Assembly (NCBI GenBank): GCA_015062345.1
Contig: SUUV01000004.1
Location: forward strand, 8,298-72,297
Direction of reading: 5' to 3'
DNA length: 64,000 nt
Source: Alphaproteobacteria bacterium
Lineage (GTDB): Bacteria; Pseudomonadota; Alphaproteobacteria; RF32; CAG-239
Below the pieces are notes generated by a model. It saw nothing but the letters and a program-made list of their open reading frames with translations, had not been told where the DNA came from and made no database searches. This document shows, one piece after another, positions 90-60,224 of this stretch. Position 1 is the stretch's first letter. Every line of letters starts with the position of its first letter. Both the position numbers and the translations under genes were made by a program.

Positions 90-270
90 CCCACTTGGGT
101 CGGGTCGAGGATAAATATTGCTCTTAGATGAGCAATATTTACCGCAGATTACCTTTTTGTTAACTTGTGAGCAAGAGATAACGAAGCGAAACAAGTGTTA
201 CAAAAAGGGTGACCGAAGCGAGTTAGAGAGCGTTTGAAAAACGCGAACTTATGAGCAAGAACGAGACTGA

Positions 271-350
271 TGTTGGCACCATTAAAACAAAACACCGTTG
301 AGGTGTTTTTTTTGTTTTAAAGTGCCGACAAGAGAGGTAAGAACTTACGA
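271..350 (+). repeat. 80 bp direct repeat, copy 2 (att-like duplication of tRNA 3' end)
   Basis: Identical to 10..89 and begins with the tRNA terminal tgttggcacca. Confidence 0.95.
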
Positions 351-509
351 GTTCATCGGACTTATCGTCAAAAGTAGTGGCGGAAAAAAGAAACAAAAAA
401 CAAACTCACCCCTCATTTTTATGAAATAAAAATGTCTTGGGGTCTTCGAATTAGTAAAAAACACAAGATTTTTGTTTTTTATTCTCATACTTTGAAACCG
501 CCCCTAACT

Positions 510-606
510 GTCACTCCGGCACTTGATGCCGGAGTCCAGGTGGTAATATAGCTAAATTATTCCCTGGATACCGGTGTCTATTCCGAACTAAAGTTCGGGC
601 ACCGGT
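510..606. repeat. REP-like composite palindromic element
   Basis: Contains hairpin ACTCCGGCA-cttga-TGCCGGAGT, a TCCAGG/CCTGGA pair and a nested ACCGGTG...CCGAACT-aa-AGTTCGG...CACCGGT. The right half recurs inverted at ~25722..25800. Confidence 0.7.
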
Positions 607-630
607 AAGACCGTGATGAGAGAGACACCT

Positions 631-788
631 CTACATCATTTTTGATTTAAATTCTTTAAACGACTCTTTTTACTTGCAAAAAAAAAAACGGTTTATGATG
701 CGATGTGAAAGGCAAATTTTTGCACCTTTCAAATGTACTTAAACTTAATTTTTGTAAAGGAATTAAAATTATGAGAAAATATTTTCTT
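631..788 (+). promoter_or_regulatory. Conserved upstream module of pilin-like family, copy 1 (poly-A11 at 678..688)
   Basis: Near-identical to modules at 25564, 35555, 51344 and 60069: TTGCAA(674-679)...TATGAT(694-699), TGAAAGG/CCTTTCA hairpin, aagga RBS, ATGAGAAAATATTTTCTT. Confidence 0.9.
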
Positions 789-1289
789 TTAAGTCTTTCT
801 TGTATATTTAGCAGTTATCAGGCAAATGCTGATAATTCATTTGCGGCCGGACAATTTACAGCTGGTGTATATGTCACCCAAGCTGATGAAATTACTTGTG
901 AACAAAATCTTGAGGCTAGAATAGTTGTTAAAGACAAACCTGAACAATTTACATTACAAATTCTCCCCAATGCATATAATATGGGTGTTTCTGTTGATAC
1001 CAATGTGATAACTGCTGTTGTAACACCTGCACAATGTACAATATCAAACGGCACATTTACTGATGTTTCTAAATTTGAGCTACCAACTGTTGTACCATTA
1101 AATTCTGCAGGAAGTGATGATATTCTTTCCGCAACTCAATCAACCATTGGTGATTTTGAGCTTGTTATATCACCTGATGGTAAAAGTGTAAATATCGGTG
1201 GAACATTTACTATCTATCCTGAAGATATACCAAATACACCAGATCAGATGATAGGTTCAGTAATTCCAATTACTTATACTTATGAATAA
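771..1289 (+). CDS. Secreted pilin-like protein (DUF4402/Csu-like family), paralog 1, the most divergent
   Basis: Start reassigned to the ATG at 771 after the RBS. Signal peptide MRKYFLL...ANA; IGGTFTI motif; C-terminal ITYTYE beta-strand. Confidence 0.7.
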   Translation: MRKYFLLSLSCIFSSYQANADNSFAAGQFTAGVYVTQADEITCEQNLEARIVVKDKPEQFTLQILPNAYNMGVSVDTNVITAVVTPAQCTISNGTFTDVSKFELPTVVPLNSAGSDDILSATQSTIGDFELVISPDGKSVNIGGTFTIYPEDIPNTPDQMIGSVIPITYTYE

Positions 1290-1326
1290 GCACAAAGCTC
1301 CGTGTCTAACTAAGTATTTTAGGCAC

Positions 1327-1361
1327 AAAAAAACTCGCAGGATTTTCCTGCGAGTTTTTTT
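1327..1361. terminator. Bidirectional intrinsic terminator
   Basis: A7-CTCGCAGG-atttt-CCTGCGAG-T7 between convergent genes. Confidence 0.85.
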
Positions 1362-1369
1362 GAGCATTA

Positions 1370-3559
1370 TTAACTTGCTTTTTTAAGCTCCTGATTTTCC
1401 AGTTCTTCAAGAACTTGTTTTTTCAAGGTAATATTATCTGTCTTACCGGTTGCAAATGTCGGAATACTGTCTTGATACATTATGATACGAGGTAAGAACA
1501 ATTCAGATAAACCATTGTTTTTTACATATTCGTGTAAAACAGATTGTTTAACTTGTTTGTTGTTGGTAACCAAAACAATCTGTTCACCTTTGCTTTCATG
1601 CGGAATGGATACAACACCATATTCAAAATCAGGTCCCATCCACTCGTAAGCCTTAACAACCATTTCCATAACAGCGGTCAAAGATACCATTTCACCGCCG
1701 ATTTTTGCAAAGCGTTTGATACGGTCACGAATATATACAAAACCGATTTCATCAATTTCAACCACATCACCGGTCTTATACCAACCGTCTTCCGGCGGTA
1801 CCAAAACTCCCGGATTTTCGGGCAAATAGTATCCCAACATAACATTCGGACCTTTAACCCAAAGTTCACCGCCGTTTTCAATTCCGGGAACAGTCTCAAT
1901 TTTATATTTCATTGCCGGCAATAATTTACCGATTGAACCGAATCGATTAAACACACTGTTGTTACCGGTTACCACCGGAGCGCATTCGGTTGAGCCATAT
2001 GCTTCCATCATTCTGATACCCATGCGTTCCATCCACATATTGCGGGTATCAAGCTTAACAGCTTCGGCACCGCCATACATAAAGCGTATATTATGAAAAT
2101 CATACGGGTGAGCAATTTTTCCGTATCCTCTGAAGAATGTGTCCGTACCGAACATAATGGTTGCTCCCAACTCATAAACAAGTTCGGCAATTACACGATA
2201 ATGAAGCGGTGAAGGATACAAAAACAATCTGGCACCTTCAAATAAGGGGAAAAATGTGCCGACCGTTAAACCGAAACTGTGGAACATCGGCAACGCATTA
2301 AACACCAAATCAGTTGTATTCAGGGTTTCAAGACAAGCCAATTGTTTTGTATTTGAAATGATATTAGCATGGCTCAATACAACGGCTTTAGGTGCACCCT
2401 CAGAACCTGATGTAAACAAAATTACAGCCTTTTTGTTGCCACCGTCTTTGTGCGGAACGCGTTTAATTTTATAACGCAAAAAAGCACCGATTTTGGCCAA
2501 CAAACCAATGTGTTTTGCCATATGCTCCAAATAGAACACTTCAACACCGCTGGCTTTTAACAACTCAACAACCGATTCTAATTTTGCCGTTCTGACAAAA
2601 GTCAACGAGGTTATAACCATTTTAACTTGTGCGGTTTTGCACATAGAGAGCATATTTTTGGCGCCAACCGAAAAGTTAAGCATTACAGGCACTCTTTCAT
2701 ATGCGGACAAACCAAACAATGTGCAAACCGTGGCAATGGTGTTTGGCAACATCAAACCTACATGCTCAAAATGTAAAGTTCTTTTTTTGAAAAACTTACC
2801 GATTACAAAAGCCTTAATAATCAAATCTTTAAATGAATTGGGCTTGCGATTGATATCCTCAATTACACGAGGGCGTTTGAAGAAAAAACCTTTTTTGGAA
2901 TGAACTTTTGAAGTTTTCATCAAATGAGCAAACAATGAAATGTTCGGATTATAATTAATCTCAAAGTTCATATCTCGTAAAATTGTGTAAACCTCATTGC
3001 TGATGTGGTCGCGTTGACGACGCAATTCGTCTTTTAATTTAAAAGGCTTGGGCTCTCCAACCGTAATGCGCATTTTGGGTAACGGACGATGCGGTAATTT
3101 GCCTTTGGTCTTAGAAAAGTATCCATATTGCGGACCGTCAATCCACACCGGAATAATCGGCGATTTTGATTTATCGGCCACCAACCCCGGAGCTTCGTAA
3201 ATTTTCATCAAACCGCCGCTTTCGGTTATGCGGCCCTCGGCAAAGATAACCACCAATCTGCCACTGTCAACCTTTGCGATAAGCTCTTTGATATCCGACG
3301 GCTCAATGGGATTAAAAAGCATTGTATCGGCATATTTCATCAAATTTCTAATCCAATGACGACGATGCAAATGACCATTTAAAGCAAAAACCGGATTTCC
3401 GGGCAAAAAGGCATATAACAACAACGGATCAAGATATGATACATGGTTGGATACATAAACACCCTTTTGGGGAAGCTTTTTCAAATCAAAGCAAATTTTA
3501 CATCTGCTTTTAAATATGGTAAAGAATGCTCTTAAACAAAATTTTACAAATTTATTCAA
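1370..3559 (-). CDS. aas: Bifunctional 2-acyl-GPE acyltransferase / acyl-ACP synthetase
   Basis: N-terminal PlsC motifs NHVSYLD and FAEGR; C-terminal AMP-binding motifs FTSGSEGAPK, YGSTE and YKTGD. Confidence 0.85.
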   Translation of the reverse strand: MNKFVKFCLRAFFTIFKSRCKICFDLKKLPQKGVYVSNHVSYLDPLLLYAFLPGNPVFALNGHLHRRHWIRNLMKYADTMLFNPIEPSDIKELIAKVDSGRLVVIFAEGRITESGGLMKIYEAPGLVADKSKSPIIPVWIDGPQYGYFSKTKGKLPHRPLPKMRITVGEPKPFKLKDELRRQRDHISNEVYTILRDMNFEINYNPNISLFAHLMKTSKVHSKKGFFFKRPRVIEDINRKPNSFKDLIIKAFVIGKFFKKRTLHFEHVGLMLPNTIATVCTLFGLSAYERVPVMLNFSVGAKNMLSMCKTAQVKMVITSLTFVRTAKLESVVELLKASGVEVFYLEHMAKHIGLLAKIGAFLRYKIKRVPHKDGGNKKAVILFTSGSEGAPKAVVLSHANIISNTKQLACLETLNTTDLVFNALPMFHSFGLTVGTFFPLFEGARLFLYPSPLHYRVIAELVYELGATIMFGTDTFFRGYGKIAHPYDFHNIRFMYGGAEAVKLDTRNMWMERMGIRMMEAYGSTECAPVVTGNNSVFNRFGSIGKLLPAMKYKIETVPGIENGGELWVKGPNVMLGYYLPENPGVLVPPEDGWYKTGDVVEIDEIGFVYIRDRIKRFAKIGGEMVSLTAVMEMVVKAYEWMGPDFEYGVVSIPHESKGEQIVLVTNNKQVKQSVLHEYVKNNGLSELFLPRIIMYQDSIPTFATGKTDNITLKKQVLEELENQELKKAS

Positions 3560-3720
3560 AGTTTTTCTCCATCAGTTACTACATATATTGTGTTGTATAC
3601 AAAAATCTCAATTTTGTAAAGATAAAAAAAAGTCTAGTGGATAGCTGAAAAAATCTTAAGAATAACATACTGATTTTGCGTTGCTTTTAAAAAATTATCA
3701 ACGAGGATAATCTTTTAGGC

Positions 3721-3749
3721 TTGCTTTTTGTTTTTTTATTGTCTATAAC
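3721..3749 (+). promoter_or_regulatory. Sigma70-type promoter upstream of fadL
   Basis: TTGCTT-17 bp-TATAAC. Confidence 0.55.
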
Positions 3750-3881
3750 GCCCCAGTAACATATTATGTACATTTATTTCAAATATGCCGCAAATATTAC
3801 AAAAAATTACAATAAACAATAAGTAAGGTATTGATGCATATTAAGTTACTTTTGGATTAACAGAAGAAGTGAATTAGTAAT

Positions 3882-5153
3882 ATGAATAAACTTTTAACTT
3901 TAACAGCATTGGGAACTGTTTTATTGGCTGCCAATGCAAATGCTGCCGGTTTCCACTTGCGTGAACAGTCAGCTGCAGCTCAAGGTAACGCTTTTGCAGG
4001 TGCAACAGCAGGTGCCGAAAACAATTCTTATGCTTATTTTAATGCAGCAGGTTTAACCAGACAAAAAGGAACACAATTTAACATTGGCGGAACATACATT
4101 GCGCCTAAAGCAAGAGCCGAAAATGTTAAATATGTTGACAACAGCGGTAACACTCAAAGAGGCTCTGATGTTAACAACATCGTGCATGCCGCAGTTGCTC
4201 CTAATATGAATTTTTCTCATCAACTTGATGAAAAAACATTTTTAGGCGTTTCTTTAAATGTTCCTTACGGTATGGTAACAAAATATGATAAAGATTGGGC
4301 AGGTTCCGATCATGGTATCACATCAAAAGTTACCTCCGTTACCGTTACTCCGATGGCTGCTTACAAAGCAACCGATAAGTTATCATTGGGTGCCGGTGTT
4401 CAGTTGCAATATATGAAAGCAAAATTGACCAACAGTGCATCAGGATTTGGTGTTGAGCATGTTCGTCTTGAAGGCGATACATTTGATATCGGTTATCAAT
4501 TAGGTGCTTTGTACGAATTTAATGACAATACTCGTATCGGTTTAGGGTACAGAAGCGAAGTTAAGCACAAATTAAAAGGTGAAATTGAAGCATCTCCTTC
4601 TGCAGCTTCCGGTATGACAGGTGCAGTAGTTAATGCTTTGCTTAACCAAGACATCAGTGCTCATTTAACAACTCCTGCTATGGCCTCGATTGGTTTATTC
4701 CACCAGTTAAACGAAAAATGGGCCGTTATGGCAGAATATCAGCGAGTATTCTGGAGTTCTTTTGATTATCTTACCATTATGGGCGAAGATACAAAATCAC
4801 AAGTTTCACAGGTTAAAGAAAAATGGCGTGATACAAACTTCTTTGCCGTTGGTGCAAGTTATCAAATTGACAATCAATGGAAATGGCGTTTAGGTTTAGC
4901 TTATGACCAATCTGCCGTTCGCATGAAACACAGAACTCCTCGCATTCCGGATTCGGATCGTTTGTGGTATTCAACAGGTTTGAACTATCAATATAACGAT
5001 AAGTTGAGTTTTGACTTGGCGTATACATACATTTATGCTCACAAAGCTCATATGCATACACAAAACATTACTCCAAATGATGTAAACAGAGCTTCAGTAG
5101 ACTTTACAAACTCTGTTCAGTTGTTCGGTTTCTCGCTTAATTATAAATTCTAA
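3882..5153 (+). CDS. fadL: FadL/OmpP1 family long-chain fatty acid outer membrane transporter
   Basis: Signal peptide, AAGFHLREQSAAAQGNAFAGA hatch motif, RTPRIPDSDRLW, C-terminal NYKF. Confidence 0.88.
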   Translation: MNKLLTLTALGTVLLAANANAAGFHLREQSAAAQGNAFAGATAGAENNSYAYFNAAGLTRQKGTQFNIGGTYIAPKARAENVKYVDNSGNTQRGSDVNNIVHAAVAPNMNFSHQLDEKTFLGVSLNVPYGMVTKYDKDWAGSDHGITSKVTSVTVTPMAAYKATDKLSLGAGVQLQYMKAKLTNSASGFGVEHVRLEGDTFDIGYQLGALYEFNDNTRIGLGYRSEVKHKLKGEIEASPSAASGMTGAVVNALLNQDISAHLTTPAMASIGLFHQLNEKWAVMAEYQRVFWSSFDYLTIMGEDTKSQVSQVKEKWRDTNFFAVGASYQIDNQWKWRLGLAYDQSAVRMKHRTPRIPDSDRLWYSTGLNYQYNDKLSFDLAYTYIYAHKAHMHTQNITPNDVNRASVDFTNSVQLFGFSLNYKF

Positions 5154-8296: not shown

Positions 8297-8325
8297 AATT
8301 TAGCAGAAAAATCGCCAACTTACAA
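8297..8325 (-). promoter_or_regulatory. Sigma70-type promoter for the lipoprotein gene
   Basis: Minus strand TTGTAA-17 bp-TAAATT. Confidence 0.5.
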
Positions 8326-11291: not shown

Positions 11292-11320
11292 TTGACAAAA
11301 TTGTAAATATAAGCTAAATT
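11292..11320 (+). promoter_or_regulatory. Sigma70-type promoter
   Basis: TTGACA-17 bp-TAAATT. Confidence 0.6.
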
Positions 11321-11993: not shown

Positions 11994-12038
11994 GACTCTT
12001 TAAAATTGCAAAAAAAACCCCTCCGGTTTATGATGTGA
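11994..12038 (+). promoter_or_regulatory. Promoter related to the pilin-like family module, with a 17 bp spacer
   Basis: gactctttt...TTGCAA(12006-12011)-17 bp-TATGAT(12029-12034)gtga, sharing CGGTTTATGATGTGA with the five modules. Confidence 0.75.
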
Positions 12039-12066: not shown

Positions 12067-12636
12067 ATGAAAAAAGTTTGTGAACTTGGAAGAAGTATGG
12101 TAGAAATGCTCGGTGTTTTGGCTATTATCGGAGTTTTATCGGTCGGTGGCATTGCAGGTTATTCAAAAGCCATGCTAAAACATAAAATAAACACAACATT
12201 AGATATTGTATCAGGTGTTATTGCAAAAATAACTGAGTTACAAGTATCCGATTCATTAACGGGTGACATAGATGTTGAAGACGCACCTAAAATAGGTCTT
12301 GACTGTGATTTATATTTTGATGAGCATTATAATGGTCATAAGTGCAAACTTCCTATTGGTGATTATGGCTTTGCGAGTTACACAAATGGTTCCACATATT
12401 TTAGTATATATCCTACAATTGACTTTGCTGTTGATATGTGTAATGCCTTTTTTACAAGCGGTATATATAAGCACTTACATTCTTATGAGTACATTAGAAT
12501 AGATGCTCCGGTTGATGCAGCGCTGTTTTCTCCGGAAGATATGATTAATATAAATATGTCACAAATAAGTAATACTTGCAAATCTACTTGTAGCAACCCA
12601 GAGGCCGTGTGTACGATAGATGTGTTTTTTCAATAA
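12067..12636 (+). CDS. Type IV prepilin-like protein
   Basis: G|RSMVEMLGVLAIIGVLSVGGIAGY class III signal (Glu at +5, hydrophobic helix); Cys-containing C-terminal domain. Confidence 0.75.
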   Translation: MKKVCELGRSMVEMLGVLAIIGVLSVGGIAGYSKAMLKHKINTTLDIVSGVIAKITELQVSDSLTGDIDVEDAPKIGLDCDLYFDEHYNGHKCKLPIGDYGFASYTNGSTYFSIYPTIDFAVDMCNAFFTSGIYKHLHSYEYIRIDAPVDAALFSPEDMININMSQISNTCKSTCSNPEAVCTIDVFFQ

Positions 12637-15199: not shown

Positions 15200-15299
15200 T
15201 TTTAAAAAAAAATAAATATTTTTTTCGTTTTAAAAACACAAGAACAAGAAAATATTAATAATTTCAAATTTATAATATAAAAAAAATTATCGGATATGT

Positions 15300-20589: not shown

Positions 20590-21658
20590 AAAAATTATAT
20601 TCACGGGTGGCGGAAGTGCAGGGCATGTTACATTAAATTTGGCCTTAATACCCATATTTTTGCAACAAGGCTGGAATGTGACATATATCGGTTCGTATAA
20701 CGGAATTGAAAAAGAGTTGGTGGCCAAATTTGAAAATGTAAAATATATTCCGATTTTAACCGGAAAATTGCGTCGTTATTTTTCTTGGCAAAATTTTATC
20801 GATATGATAAAAATTCCGCTTGGGGTTTTAGAGGCAATTTGGATTGTGTTTAAGCAAAAACCGGATATTGTTTTTTCAAAAGGCGGATTTGTGTCATTTC
20901 CGGTGGTTTTAGCCGCAAAGGTAAATGGTGTTAAGTGCGTAATGCACGAATCAGATGTCACTCCGGGGCTTGCAAATAAAATGTCATTACCGTTTGTATC
21001 AAAGTTCTTTACCACTTTTGAAGATACCGTAAAATATGTCAAAGACAAATCAAAAGTAGATTGCGTGGGGCCGGTGTTGTCCGACAGATTAAAAAACGGT
21101 ACCAAAAAATCAGCTTGCCAAGTGTGTGATTTTGATGAAGGCAAACCGGTTATAATGGTAATCGGCGGTAGCTTGGGTGCTAAAAGCATAAATGATGCCA
21201 TAAGAAAAAATTTATTTAAGCTTTTGAAAAAATATCAAGTCATACACATTTGCGGTAAAGGTCAAGTTGATGAAAGCATTGATAAAAAAGGTTACAAACA
21301 GTTTGATTATGTTTCAGACGAGTTAAAAGATTTTATGGCGGCCGCAGATGTTGTGATATCAAGAGCCGGCTCAAATTCTATTTTTGAACTGTTAAGTTTA
21401 AACAAACCGATGGTTTTGATACCCTTATCCGGTGCATCAAGTCGAGGTGAACAAATGCTTAATGCAAAGTCGTTTCAAAACAGAGGCTATTGTGAGATTG
21501 TTGCCGATGATAAATTGTGTGAAGACGGCTTGTTGCTTGATACACTGGATAAGGTTTACAAAAATAGAGAAATTTACATTGAAAATATGAAAAACAGCGG
21601 ATTTAAGGCTACAAATAATTATGAATTGGTTGAGAAAATAATAAAAACAGATAAATAA
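20582..21658 (+). CDS. murG: MurG glycosyltransferase (Firmicutes-like sequence type)
   Basis: FTGGGSAGHV, TGKLRRY, SKGGFVSFP, HESDVTPGLAN, GGSLGA, SRAGSNS, RGEQMLNA. Confidence 0.88.
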   Translation: MAKKIIFTGGGSAGHVTLNLALIPIFLQQGWNVTYIGSYNGIEKELVAKFENVKYIPILTGKLRRYFSWQNFIDMIKIPLGVLEAIWIVFKQKPDIVFSKGGFVSFPVVLAAKVNGVKCVMHESDVTPGLANKMSLPFVSKFFTTFEDTVKYVKDKSKVDCVGPVLSDRLKNGTKKSACQVCDFDEGKPVIMVIGGSLGAKSINDAIRKNLFKLLKKYQVIHICGKGQVDESIDKKGYKQFDYVSDELKDFMAAADVVISRAGSNSIFELLSLNKPMVLIPLSGASSRGEQMLNAKSFQNRGYCEIVADDKLCEDGLLLDTLDKVYKNREIYIENMKNSGFKATNNYELVEKIIKTDK

Positions 21659-25140: not shown

Positions 25141-25581
25141 CTAATCTAACTCAATAACTGTAAATGAACCTGTATATACACCAACCGGAACATTAGCAGG
25201 AATATTTAATGTGCCACCAATTGCAAAACCACCAGTGGATTCATCAGAAAGGCTTATAGATAGTGTGTTTTCACCATTTTTAATTGTAACAGTTTCTGGA
25301 AAATGCATACTATTTAGGTCATCAAAAGTGGCTAATGTAGCATTGTCTACACTTAAGACATCACCTGTGTGAGATACAACACTGTTTTTTGATATAGTTA
25401 CAGTTGAATCTTTATTGTTTGATTTTATGGCAATTACACCAAAATCTAAATCAGAATATTTTTCAAAAGTATTAGCGGTTACAAGTTCAGCTTTAGCGGT
25501 AACCTCTGCATATCTTGTAGCAGCATTTGCGGTGCTTGTTGCTAAAAGAGCCACAGCGCTCAAAAGAAAATATTTTCTCAT
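25141..25581 (-). CDS. Secreted pilin-like protein (DUF4402/Csu-like), paralog 2
   Basis: MRKYFLLSAVALLATSTANA signal; DLDFGVI; IGGTLNIPAN.PVGVYTGSFTV. Confidence 0.75.
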   Translation of the reverse strand: MRKYFLLSAVALLATSTANAATRYAEVTAKAELVTANTFEKYSDLDFGVIAIKSNNKDSTVTISKNSVVSHTGDVLSVDNATLATFDDLNSMHFPETVTIKNGENTLSISLSDESTGGFAIGGTLNIPANVPVGVYTGSFTVIELD

Positions 25582-25721
25582 AATTTTAAATCCTTTACAA
25601 AAATTCAAGTTTAAATGTACTTGAAAGGTAAAAACTCACCTTTCACATCACATCATAAACCGTTTTTTTTTTTTGCAAGTAAAAAGAGTCTTTGCGTGGA
25701 TTTAAATCAAAAATGAGGTAG
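25564..25721 (-). promoter_or_regulatory. Conserved upstream module, copy 2 (poly-A12; T12 at 25663..25674)
   Basis: Reverse-complement match to 631..788. Confidence 0.9.
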
Positions 25722-25800
25722 AAGTGTCTCTATCCTCCACAGTTATACCGGTGCCCGAAGGGCTTTAGCCCTTAAGGATTAGACACCGATATCCATGCAA
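25722..25800 (-). repeat. Partial REP-like element homologous to ~564..630
   Basis: Minus strand ggatatcggtgtctaatcc...ttcgggcaccggta...agagacac matches ggataccggtgtctattcc...ttcgggcaccggta...agagacac. Confidence 0.75.
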
Positions 25801-35092: not shown

Positions 35093-35572
35093 CTAAAAAG
35101 TAACAGAGAAAGTGACTGTGCCACTATAAGCTCCTGAAGGTGCAGATGCGGGTATTGTTAATATTCCACCAATATTCTCACTACCATCACCAATCCATAT
35201 TTCACCGGAAAGTGTGGGTGATCCTTCACCGGTATCTTCTCCATAAAGTGTAAAATCAACCTGCTTATCTTCAGAAAAATAACTGAAACCAGAAGGAAAA
35301 CGACACTCAAACCTAGTATTATCATATGGAAGACTAATACCGTCAGATAGAGTTGTTTCACCTGAATATTGGTCTACTTGTATTGTTTGTTCTCCCTGTG
35401 CTGAAGCGCTTCTAAGTATAGTTCCGAATTCAGCATCACAATTAAACTCATAGGTATCCATAATAAAAGCTTCGACATTAACGGTAGCATTACCCATAGC
35501 ATCAGCATATGTCTTATTTGTGATAACTGAAATCATCAAAGCCACAGCTGATAAAAGAAAATATTTTCTCAT
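35093..35572 (-). CDS. Secreted pilin-like protein (DUF4402/Csu-like), paralog 3
   Basis: MRKYFLLSAVAL signal; C.AEFGTI; IGGILTIPAS.PSGAYSGTVTFSVTF. Confidence 0.75.
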   Translation of the reverse strand: MRKYFLLSAVALMISVITNKTYADAMGNATVNVEAFIMDTYEFNCDAEFGTILRSASAQGEQTIQVDQYSGETTLSDGISLPYDNTRFECRFPSGFSYFSEDKQVDFTLYGEDTGEGSPTLSGEIWIGDGSENIGGILTIPASAPSGAYSGTVTFSVTF

Positions 35573-35713
35573 AATTTTATTCCTTTACAAAAATTAAGTT
35601 TAAGTACATTTGAAAGGTGCAAAAATTTACCTTTCACATCACATCATAAACCGTTTTTTTTTTTTGCAAGTAAAAAGAGTCGTTTAAAGAATTTAAATCA
35701 AAAATGAGGTAAG
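35555..35713 (-). promoter_or_regulatory. Conserved upstream module, copy 3 (T12 at 35654..35665)
   Basis: Near-identical to copy 1. Confidence 0.9.
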
Positions 35714-56213: not shown

Positions 56214-56585
56214 ATGAAAAAAATAAGTTTAACTGCACTTGCCGTAATGCTTTGTTTATCAAGCTTGGCAAATGCAAAAGAACATTGCGATTATATGGAT
56301 AAAAAAGGCGGATATATTGTAAGCGACAGCGACATCACAACGGTTAAAACAGCGTTAGGGATGCAAGAAGATTCAATTGTAACATTGCAAGGACAAATTG
56401 AAAAGCGCCTTAAAAAAGATATGTATCAATTTAAAGATGCAAGCGGGACTATGATGATTGAAATCGGTAAAAAAGTATGGCACGGACAAACCGTAAGTGC
56501 AAAAGATACCGTGCAAATCACCGGTGAACTGGATAAAGATGATGATAAAATTGTTTTAGATGTTGAAAGCCTGATTAAAAAGTAA
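56214..56585 (+). CDS. Periplasmic bacterial OB-fold (YgiW/YdeI family) protein
   Basis: Signal peptide; V.LQG.I, Y.F.D.SG...EI....W.G, V.I.GELDKD. Confidence 0.85.
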   Translation: MKKISLTALAVMLCLSSLANAKEHCDYMDKKGGYIVSDSDITTVKTALGMQEDSIVTLQGQIEKRLKKDMYQFKDASGTMMIEIGKKVWHGQTVSAKDTVQITGELDKDDDKIVLDVESLIKK

Positions 56586-56630
56586 ATATATTAAAACCTC
56601 CCCTTGTTTATAACTTGGGGAGGGAAAATT

Positions 56631-56890
56631 TTAACTATTAGTAATAATTGTAAGGGTAAAAGTGCCTACATAATCACCGGCTTCTATTTTGGAAGGGATA
56701 TGCAATGTGCCACCCATTCCCCAATTATCATCATCAGACAAGTCTAATGTTAATGTTTTTGTTTTACCGGCGGCAAAAAGTTCAATTGTTGATGGATAAT
56801 CCACACCTACCGCATCGGAAAAATGATAACCACCGGGAAATTCATCACAAACAGATGAGGTGGCTGATGTTGTAAATTGTACATAAAGAC
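56631..56890 (-). pseudogene. 5'-truncated pilin-like paralog 6
   Basis: Not in the ORF track. Minus frame ...CDEFPGGYHF...WGMGGTLHIPSKIEAGDYVGTFTLTIITNS* carries the family C-terminal motif; no start, signal peptide or module. Confidence 0.75.
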
Positions 56891-59591: not shown

Positions 59592-60086
59592 TTATTCAAC
59601 GGTAACCAACACTGAAAAAGAACCTGTATATTCACCTACAGGTATGTTTTCTGGAATAAATAATGTGCCACCTATACCAAGGTAATATCCGACGGAATCA
59701 TGTCCTGCCGGACCGCTAGTGAATTGAGATACAAGAAGAGCTGCCTCAGGATTATTAGCATTTGTAAGTATCAACATTTGAGGCAATATAACATTAGCAT
59801 TTTCTACTGAGCTTTGAAATATACAACGAGCAGATTCTATTCCATTTGCAAGCACACCATTATCACCGGTAATTAAAGTGCCTGTTGCAGAATTATAGTC
59901 AAGAGTAAGCATGCTCGTCGGATTATTAGAAGGTACATAAATATCTCCAAAAGTCATTTCAGAGCAAGAAATGCTGGTTACATTTTTAACTGTGGCACTA
60001 ACTTGAATTGTTCCGGTATAATCTTCGGCATTAGCTGTGCTCACAGTTAAAACAGCTACAGCACAAGTAAGAAAATATTTTCTCAT
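59592..60086 (-). CDS. Secreted pilin-like protein (DUF4402/Csu-like), paralog 5
   Basis: MRKYFLT...STANA; CSEMTFGDI; IGGTLFIPENIPVGEYTGSFSVLVTVE. Confidence 0.75.
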   Translation of the reverse strand: MRKYFLTCAVAVLTVSTANAEDYTGTIQVSATVKNVTSISCSEMTFGDIYVPSNNPTSMLTLDYNSATGTLITGDNGVLANGIESARCIFQSSVENANVILPQMLILTNANNPEAALLVSQFTSGPAGHDSVGYYLGIGGTLFIPENIPVGEYTGSFSVLVTVE

Positions 60087-60224
60087 AATTTAATCCTTTA
60101 CAAAAATAGTTTAAGTACATTTGAAAGGTGCAAAAATTTACCTTTCACATCGCATCATAAACCGTTTTTTTTTTTTGCAAGTAAAAAGAGTCTTTTAAGG
60201 TATTTAAATCAAATTTGAGGTAAG
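60069..60224 (-). promoter_or_regulatory. Conserved upstream module, copy 5 (T12 at 60165..60176)
   Basis: Near-identical to the other copies. Confidence 0.9.

Follow-up and report, generated by a model that had tools for sequence, protein, structure and literature searches.

A poly-A tract of conserved length in a promoter shared by dispersed surface-protein genes of gut Alphaproteobacteria

Upstream of each of five paralogous genes for small secreted proteins in an alphaproteobacterial contig, a run of eleven or twelve adenines lies between two promoter-like blocks, which raises the question of whether this run is a slipped-strand switch or a fixed part of the promoter. The window analysed here is the whole stretch of 64,000 nucleotides (contig SUUV01000004.1, positions 8,298 to 72,297), with a GC content of 36%. 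In the preliminary description of this DNA, the tract was proposed as a candidate phase switch on every paralog: the assembled A11 and A12 alleles would be weak or OFF, and A13 or A14 would turn a given paralog ON, the stated alternative being that A12 is the functional length. Invariance of the tract across reads and strains was named there as one observation that would speak against a switch.

Homopolymers are known from several bacterial promoters. The vlp genes of Mycoplasma hyorhinis, a family named in reviews, have a poly-A tract between the -35 and -10 elements and are ON at one tract length; the fim2, fim3 and fimX promoters of Bordetella pertussis and Bordetella bronchiseptica contain a C-stretch between the BvgA site and the -10 element. 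Other examples are the T-tract 'rheostat' of sabA in Helicobacter pylori and the spacers of porA (poly-G) and opc (poly-C) in Neisseria meningitidis. A 12-nt homopolymer slips at rates orders of magnitude higher than that of base substitution.

The promoter module and the genes behind it

The pattern TTGC-A(n)-CGGTT-TATGAT occurs in five copies in the window, as had been described, with A11 in one copy and A12 in four, and direct counting confirms TTGCAA/TATGAT spacers of 14 bp with A11 and 15 bp with A12. Exact matches to TTGC-A(10+)-CGGTTTATGAT number five in the window versus 0 expected (100 shuffles). The five tracts are uninterrupted and long enough for slippage (about 9 or more for A/T); they are also the longest homopolymers of the window, the next being four runs of 9. 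A9 runs outside the module lie at 15204, 30074 and 37978. A sixth promoter of the same family, with an interrupted tract, precedes a type-IV-pilin-like gene. The promoters and their genes are as follows.

662..700, plus strand: promoter core of copy 1, with GACTC at 662-666, TTGC at 674-677 and A11 at 678-688 (TTGC...TATGAT spans 674-699)
689-700, plus strand: 3' part of the copy 1 core, with CGGTT at 689-693, TATGAT at 694-699 and G at 700
771..1289, plus strand: copy 1 gene, 172 aa, secreted DUF4402-like paralog of the longer 'NGTF' subfamily, no Pfam match
25652..25678, minus strand: promoter core of copy 2, A12 (T12 on the plus strand at 25663-25674)
25141..25581, minus strand: copy 2 gene, 146 aa, Pfam DUF4402 at 44.7 bits
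35643..35669, minus strand: promoter core of copy 3, A12 (T12 on the plus strand at 35654-35665)
35093..35572, minus strand: copy 3 gene, 159 aa, DUF4402 at 27.5 bits
51425..51451, minus strand: promoter core of copy 4, A12 (T12 on the plus strand at 51436-51447)
50927..51361, minus strand: copy 4 gene, 144 aa, DUF4402-like at 17.6 bits (below the cut-off)
60154..60180, minus strand: promoter core of copy 5, A12 (T12 on the plus strand at 60165-60176)
59592..60086, minus strand: copy 5 gene, 164 aa, DUF4402 at 40.2 bits
11994..12035, plus strand: interrupted-tract promoter of the same family, GACTC-N7-TTGC (TTGC at 12006-12009), A8 at 12010-12017 and CCCCTC at 12018-12023
12024-12034, plus strand: 3' part of the interrupted-tract promoter, CGGTT at 12024-12028 and TATGAT at 12029-12034; 17-bp spacer
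12067..12636, plus strand: type-IV-pilin-like gene behind the interrupted-tract promoter, 189 aa, beginning MKKVCELG/RSMVEMLGVLAIIGVLS...

The gathering cut-off of Pfam DUF4402 (PF14352) is 25.2 bits. All five copies share a module of ~170 nt upstream of the small secreted DUF4402-like genes, which comprises, next to GACTC and the core, AT-rich sequence upstream, a leader that can form a hairpin, the ribosome-binding site AAAGGA and the signal peptide MRKYFLL. Sigma-70-type hexamers are found in all copies (TTGCAA with 4/6 matches, TATGAT with 5/6). The canonical sigma-70 spacer of 16-18 bp is absent at the five sites (14 or 15 bp); with 17 bp, the interrupted copy at 12006 is alone in falling within this range. 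The -10 element is near consensus and the hairpin sits about where the transcript would start; given also the strong AAAGGA ribosome-binding site, the module looks built for strong expression, as judged from its letters. Two repeated elements lie nearby. A REP-like palindrome (ccggtgtc...gggcaccgg) is found at 493-585 and again at about 25700-25800, preceding copies 1 and 2 but none of the others; metagenome contigs cover it at a depth of 400-800 versus about 3 in the unique flanks, thus the element itself is highly repeated. A terminator-like hairpin, AAAACACCGTTGAGGTGTTTT, is present in identical form at 28-48 and 289-309, 261 nt apart, upstream of copy 1.

The preliminary description had set the short spacers against 17-bp spacers at four other promoters. 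The one at 12006, which reads GACTCTTT-AAAA-TTGC-A8-CCCCTC-CGGTT-TATGAT, is confirmed as a member of the promoter family of the poly-A copies. Hexamer pairs are also present at 11292 (TTGACA-17-TAAATT) and 3721 (TTGCTT-17-TATAAC), while no -35-like hexamer is visible at 8297. As generic hexamer pairs are not above chance in the window (70 found versus 63.9 +/- 9.5 in shuffles), the promoter at 12006 is the sole meaningful 17-bp comparison.

The two families behind the promoter have quite different leaders (DUF4402-like genes, MRKYFLLSAVAL...; pilin-like genes, ...G/RSMVEMLGVLAIIGVLSVG...). The copy 1 protein aligns with the DUF4402-like family despite its lack of a Pfam match, and the mature DUF4402 proteins have diverged to 26-48% identity. 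Type IV pilins and pseudopilins are recognised by a prepilin leader that ends in G, a Glu at +5 and a hydrophobic N-terminal helix. In the gene at 12067, which has no Pfam match, the motif G/RSMVEMLGVLAIIGVLS is visible at the N-terminus (G/RSMVEMLGVLAIIG), and a relative has a weak NCBIfam match to a prepilin-peptidase-dependent protein (E = 0.0027). The predicted DUF4402 model (pLDDT 73) has its best PDB resemblance to the chaperone-usher subunit Caf1 (E = 0.05, TM 0.38-0.46), a weak likeness that we take as a lead only. Precursor residues about 21-36 of many DUF4402 paralogs make up an alternating strand-like segment (TTDYAEVTAKATIEVA) after the signal peptide, which is disordered in the monomer model; this segment and the weak resemblance to Caf1 would fit a subunit of a donor-strand fibre. 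Neither a chaperone nor an usher was seen in the window, and no mention of DUF4402 was found in the literature searched. The window also holds the relic of a DUF4402 paralog at about 56570-56740 (minus strand), a C-terminal half ending in ...GGTLHIPSKIEAGDYVGTFTLTIITNS and a stop, which lacks both the promoter module and the N-terminus. In addition, an Rfam match to the Staphylococcus sRNA S414 (55.7 bits versus a gathering threshold of 45) was found inside a coding region at 21113-21287 (minus strand); in an alphaproteobacterial contig this match is probably spurious or driven by protein coding.

Reuse of the promoter in relatives and the length of its tract

GTDB species genomes were scanned with the pattern TTGCAAAAAAN{0,20}CGGTTTATGAT, and the counts given here are taken from the matches listed. 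Among these matches, true family copies are found only in metagenome-assembled genomes (MAGs) of uncultured gut Alphaproteobacteria: RGIG4267 (roe deer colon) has at least 40 copies and BRZ_SP bin53 about 20, and the promoter is also carried by RGIG3968, BRZ_FB bin86 and BRZ_LA bin12. The other matches to the pattern have unrelated spacers and are due to chance. Altogether, the matches listed in the related herbivore-gut MAGs place the core before about 60 genes of two families. An identical core stands ahead of two gene families that are unrelated and differ in their 5'UTRs, in four or five MAGs of differing GC content. In BRZ_FB bin86 (GC 40.5%), the core also precedes a third gene type, secreted and Cys-rich. 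The copy concerned (contig L050, 1141-1168, minus strand) is the sole A13 copy among the GTDB matches listed; as the gene behind it, which encodes a Cys-rich protein with a signal peptide, belongs to neither the DUF4402-like nor the pilin-like family, use of the promoter extends beyond these two.

When 59 distinct copies are compared, conservation is high from (A)GACTCTTTT through TTGC and the tract to CGGTTTATGATG and collapses immediately outside, and GACTC and CGGTT are conserved to the same degree as the hexamers. The clade consensus of about 45 bp can be written as (A)GACTC-N7-TTGC-A12-CGGTT-TATGAT-G. Such a footprint is to be expected if transcription from the promoter begins immediately downstream of TATGAT, the putative -10 element. 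GACTC (662-666 in copy 1 and at an equal offset in the other copies of the window; contigs L001-L064 in the relatives) lies exactly 12 nt before TTGC in 40/56 promoter copies. It is an instance of GANTC, the CcrM methylation motif of Alphaproteobacteria, the background of which is 1.5 GANTC per kb. Control that depends on methylation is possible.

The clade DNA examined, 379 kb in all, contains 62 module tracts: 46 of A12, 6 of A11, 3 of A10, 4 of A9, 2 of A8 and 1 of A13. The range among paralogs is A6 to A13, and nearly all deviants from A12 are shorter, i.e. contractions. A survey anchored on the coding sequences through a protein motif gave a similar picture, with 38 A12 tracts among about 57 genes, and nearly every family gene has the promoter; a base change in CGGTTTATGAT was seen in just two copies in this survey. 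The tract is pure A in 57/58 family promoters, the exception being the A8CCCCTC of the window. Non-module A/T runs in the same 379 kb become rapidly scarcer with length (7 nt, 376 runs; 8 nt, 78; 9 nt, 10; 10 nt or longer, 1); since runs of at least 10 are thus nearly absent, the A12 tract is not compositional. Its length and purity have been kept while the leader, the upstream sequence and the mature proteins diverged.

Most of the copies with A8-A11 retain intact ORFs; therefore, short tracts may not abolish expression, or these copies are kept for another reason. A link between a short tract and a broken ORF is not significant (2/13 short-tract copies versus 1/37 with A12, p = 0.16). Decayed copies were seen in RGIG4267 at L042 (A10), L036 (A9), L061 on the minus strand (A12) and L041:4779 (A8 with TAAGAT); the types of decay are a lost start codon, a 43-53 aa truncation and a mutated -10 element, and they are not limited to short tracts. 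Short tracts were considered as a mark of the 'NGTF' subfamily, as 3/3 members had them at first (p = 0.015); two more members then proved to have A12, which leaves a weak tendency (4/6 versus 4/22, p = 0.038).

Tract length across samples, strains and bulk populations

Look-ups with exact protein sequences returned about 50 contigs for 9 loci, each read at the consensus level, and tract length was invariant at 8/9 loci, including strains that are 0.06-2.7% diverged. The loci read as follows.

Window copy 1: A11, 2/2 contigs agree
Window copy 2: A12, 5/5 contigs agree
Window copy 3: A12, 6/6 contigs agree
Window copy 4: A12, 4/4 readable contigs agree
Window copy 5: A12, 4/4 contigs agree
Pilin promoter of the window (12006): A8CCCCTC, 5/5 contigs from other samples agree
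A8 locus of RGIG4267: A8, 5/5 contigs agree
A9 pilin locus of RGIG4267: A9, 3/3 contigs agree
Two further A12 loci of relatives: A12, 6/6 and 2/2 contigs agree

Many of the cross-sample contigs are 100% identical to the window and hence represent one and the same strain, which makes them non-independent. At least 9 contigs belong to non-identical strains (97.3-99.94% flank identity), all of which keep the tract length, and in some of these strains the leader, 5'UTR or upstream neighbour is different and the tract is unchanged. If fast slippage is valid here, a neutral tract should have changed its length at these divergences. The invariance that the preliminary description had named as evidence against a switch is thus found, at the consensus level, at eight of the nine loci, and its proposal of a switch on every paralog is not borne out at these loci, where each tract has the same length in every sample and strain.

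The ninth locus is that of the P0002 gene next to carD (L121-L128), which has three promoter alleles: A12 with TAAGAT in one strain and A11 with TATGAT, in two different modules, in two others. Each combination of tract and -10 element is one step from the consensus promoter. The P0002 leaders differ between the strains, and one of the A11 strains carries the exact module of window copy 1, which points to replacement of the module rather than to clean slippage. Whole promoter/leader modules are thus exchanged between loci.

Bulk populations were examined in eight metagenome runs from at least four studies (goat-type faeces, gut, sheep gut), using Logan contigs with an A12 copy as the reference. 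Module depth at the tract is 150-4300 in these runs, and A12 accounts for about 90-97% of the module contig depth, A11 for 0-8% and A13 for 0-2%; as Logan contigs lose rare variants and are interrupted within the repeated module, these figures show the dominance of A12 and not the absence of minority lengths. One A13 contig, in run X6, is distinguished by substitutions of its own and by a depth near that of a single copy; it therefore represents a fixed paralog allele, not a sub-population. A scan of metagenome contigs for A13-A16 was empty, in a collection that does not hold the family (in the control scan, 18/18 matches were unrelated). None of the RNA runs searched holds copy 3. Runs X25-X28, found via the 5'UTR, were considered as RNA and rejected, because the promoter is covered too, at a depth of 2-5, which is DNA-like.

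Fixed geometry or switch

Taken on balance, these data make it somewhat probable that the poly-A run is a fixed, selected part of one clade-specific promoter, with A12 as its normal and most likely active state. The argument is that OFF lengths would be invisible to selection and would drift; A12 is held in families, species and strains, so A12 is the selected state, and the simplest reading is then that A12 belongs to the working promoter. The promoter would have been placed before dozens of dispersed genes, for secreted DUF4402-like and type-IV-pilin-like proteins, in uncultured herbivore-gut Alphaproteobacteria, and purifying selection would keep both the length and the purity of A12. For RNA polymerase or a dedicated factor, the rigid A-tract may set how the TTGC block and the CGGTT-TATGAT block are placed relative to each other. 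The slippery run and the exchange of modules between loci would yield occasional heritable variants (A6-A11, rarely A13, or a TAAGAT -10 element), and these would be stable, locus-specific alleles, probably promoter-down, rather than fast ON/OFF states. We infer, too, that A12 gives the active spacing and that expression falls with a shorter tract. Against this reading, a 15-bp TTGCAA/TATGAT spacer is short for a sigma-70-type promoter, a promoter of this family functions, or at any rate survives, with 17 bp at 12006, the low-power hexamer census described below peaks at 16-17 bp, and most copies with A8-A11 have intact ORFs. A 15-bp optimum could possibly be due to a dedicated factor, or to a -10-dominated promoter that is boosted by TTGC at the right distance.

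In anatomy the poly-A promoter resembles those of Bordetella fim and Mycoplasma vlp, as far as such an analogy goes. With the fim system it shares dispersed paralogous genes for filament subunits, a homopolymer of ~12-15 nt between a conserved upstream block and the -10 element, and paralogs with much shorter tracts that retain intact ORFs. Unlike in fim, the tract is A rather than C, dozens of genes of two families are concerned instead of three or four genes, and A12 is strongly fixed, with no strain-to-strain switching seen at a locus. As in vlp, each member of a multigene family for surface proteins has a conserved 5' region and carries poly-A in its putative -35/-10 spacer. On the other hand, vlp tracts differ by gene and clone and switch at high frequency, while the tracts here are near-uniform and stable, in a Gram-negative alphaproteobacterium whose genes are dispersed and not clustered. 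In sabA, porA and opc, where the homopolymer is next to or between promoter elements, its length changes promoter strength stepwise, which by analogy would be the most plausible action of the A6-A13 alleles here; however, the tracts of those genes are polymorphic between isolates and within populations, and the consensus-level search found no such polymorphism.

A genuine contingency switch that is ON at A12, in which slippage to A11 or A13 in a few cells would give reversible down or off variants and a mixed surface repertoire, is unlikely. A pure 12-nt homopolymer before surface or pilus-like multigene families, with its purity conserved though the flanks diverge, is what such a switch would look like. 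It also agrees with the paralog lengths of A6 to A13, with bulk A11 and A13 contigs at 0-8%, with consensus assemblies that would show only the majority A12, and with the analogy to the fim and vlp promoters. Selection for tract purity is expected of a contingency locus too. However, length polymorphism at a locus, the contingency-locus behaviour that is testable here, was not observed: no clean change of length was found at 9 loci in about 50 contigs, diverged strains included, the sole A11/A12 difference accompanied the replacement of a module at P0002, the X6 A13 contig is a fixed paralog allele, and the deviant A8 and A9 tracts are stable, not oscillating. In its broadest form, a genome-wide contingency regulon would comprise at least 50 unlinked genes of two filament/surface families, each independently tunable in a minority of cells, and selection returning each locus to A12 would make the consensus appear fixed; we hold this form to be unlikely.

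It is quite improbable that the A-tract is instead a recognition or architectural site (for an activator, a nucleoid protein or an alternative sigma factor), or that the start site is elsewhere and the spacing frame is wrong. Such a reading would account for the conservation of CGGTT and GACTC at the level of the hexamers, which is unusual for sigma-70 spacer and upstream positions, for the GANTC (CcrM-type) site at a fixed distance in 40/56 copies, and for the intact genes behind A8-A11, which suggest that strict -35/-10 spacing is not essential. Yet by eye no sigma-54, ECF, sigma-28 or IHF consensus fits (for sigma-54, there is no GG at -24), and the conservation ends right after TATGATG while the 5'UTRs of the two families are unrelated, which would place the start site just downstream of TATGAT. 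Two further candidates were rejected: a transcription start inside the A-run from an upstream TATAAA, which is found in one upstream variant only and would leave TATGAT unexplained, and a terminator tail formed by T12 on the opposite strand, which has no preceding stem.

The model proposed in the preliminary description, with A11 and A12 OFF or weak and A13-A14 (16-17 bp) ON, which would leave most copies silent in any cell, is very improbable, although parts of it hold. The tract does separate two conserved promoter-like blocks within a shared cassette, has a length at which slippage can occur and varies from A6 to A13 among paralogs; what the data do not support is its action as the switch proposed. 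The canonical sigma-70 optimum is 17 bp, the promoter of the pilin-like gene is locked at 17 bp by its interrupted tract, and a census of TTGnnn-N(x)-TAnnnT in 154 clade intergenic regions has a weak peak at 16-17 bp, not at 15 (with low power). Rare A13 alleles do exist, and one ON locus of about 50 per cell would give A13 at about 2% of bulk depth, which is compatible with the data. However, nothing would hold an OFF A12 at exactly 12, yet this length is found in 46/62 tracts, unchanged between diverged strains and species; A12 is modal in two gene families and several species and dominates the depth in eight runs; deviants are almost all shorter, with A13 present as single alleles only and no A14 among the family promoters surveyed; and the module otherwise looks built for strong expression. 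The data agree better with the alternative offered in the same description, in which A12 is the functional length.

If the tract acts through geometry only, it would be a clear natural case in which purifying selection acts on both the length and the base composition of a homopolymer spacer, throughout a regulon that comprises dozens of genes for surface proteins, and the natural allelic series of A6-A13, together with the interrupted 17-bp form, would allow spacer length and A-tract structure to be related to promoter strength in Alphaproteobacteria. Should the tract switch within populations as well, the surface repertoire under homopolymer control would far exceed any other described in a Gram-negative commensal. 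On either reading, the assembled A11 and A12 alleles should not be annotated as silent genes.
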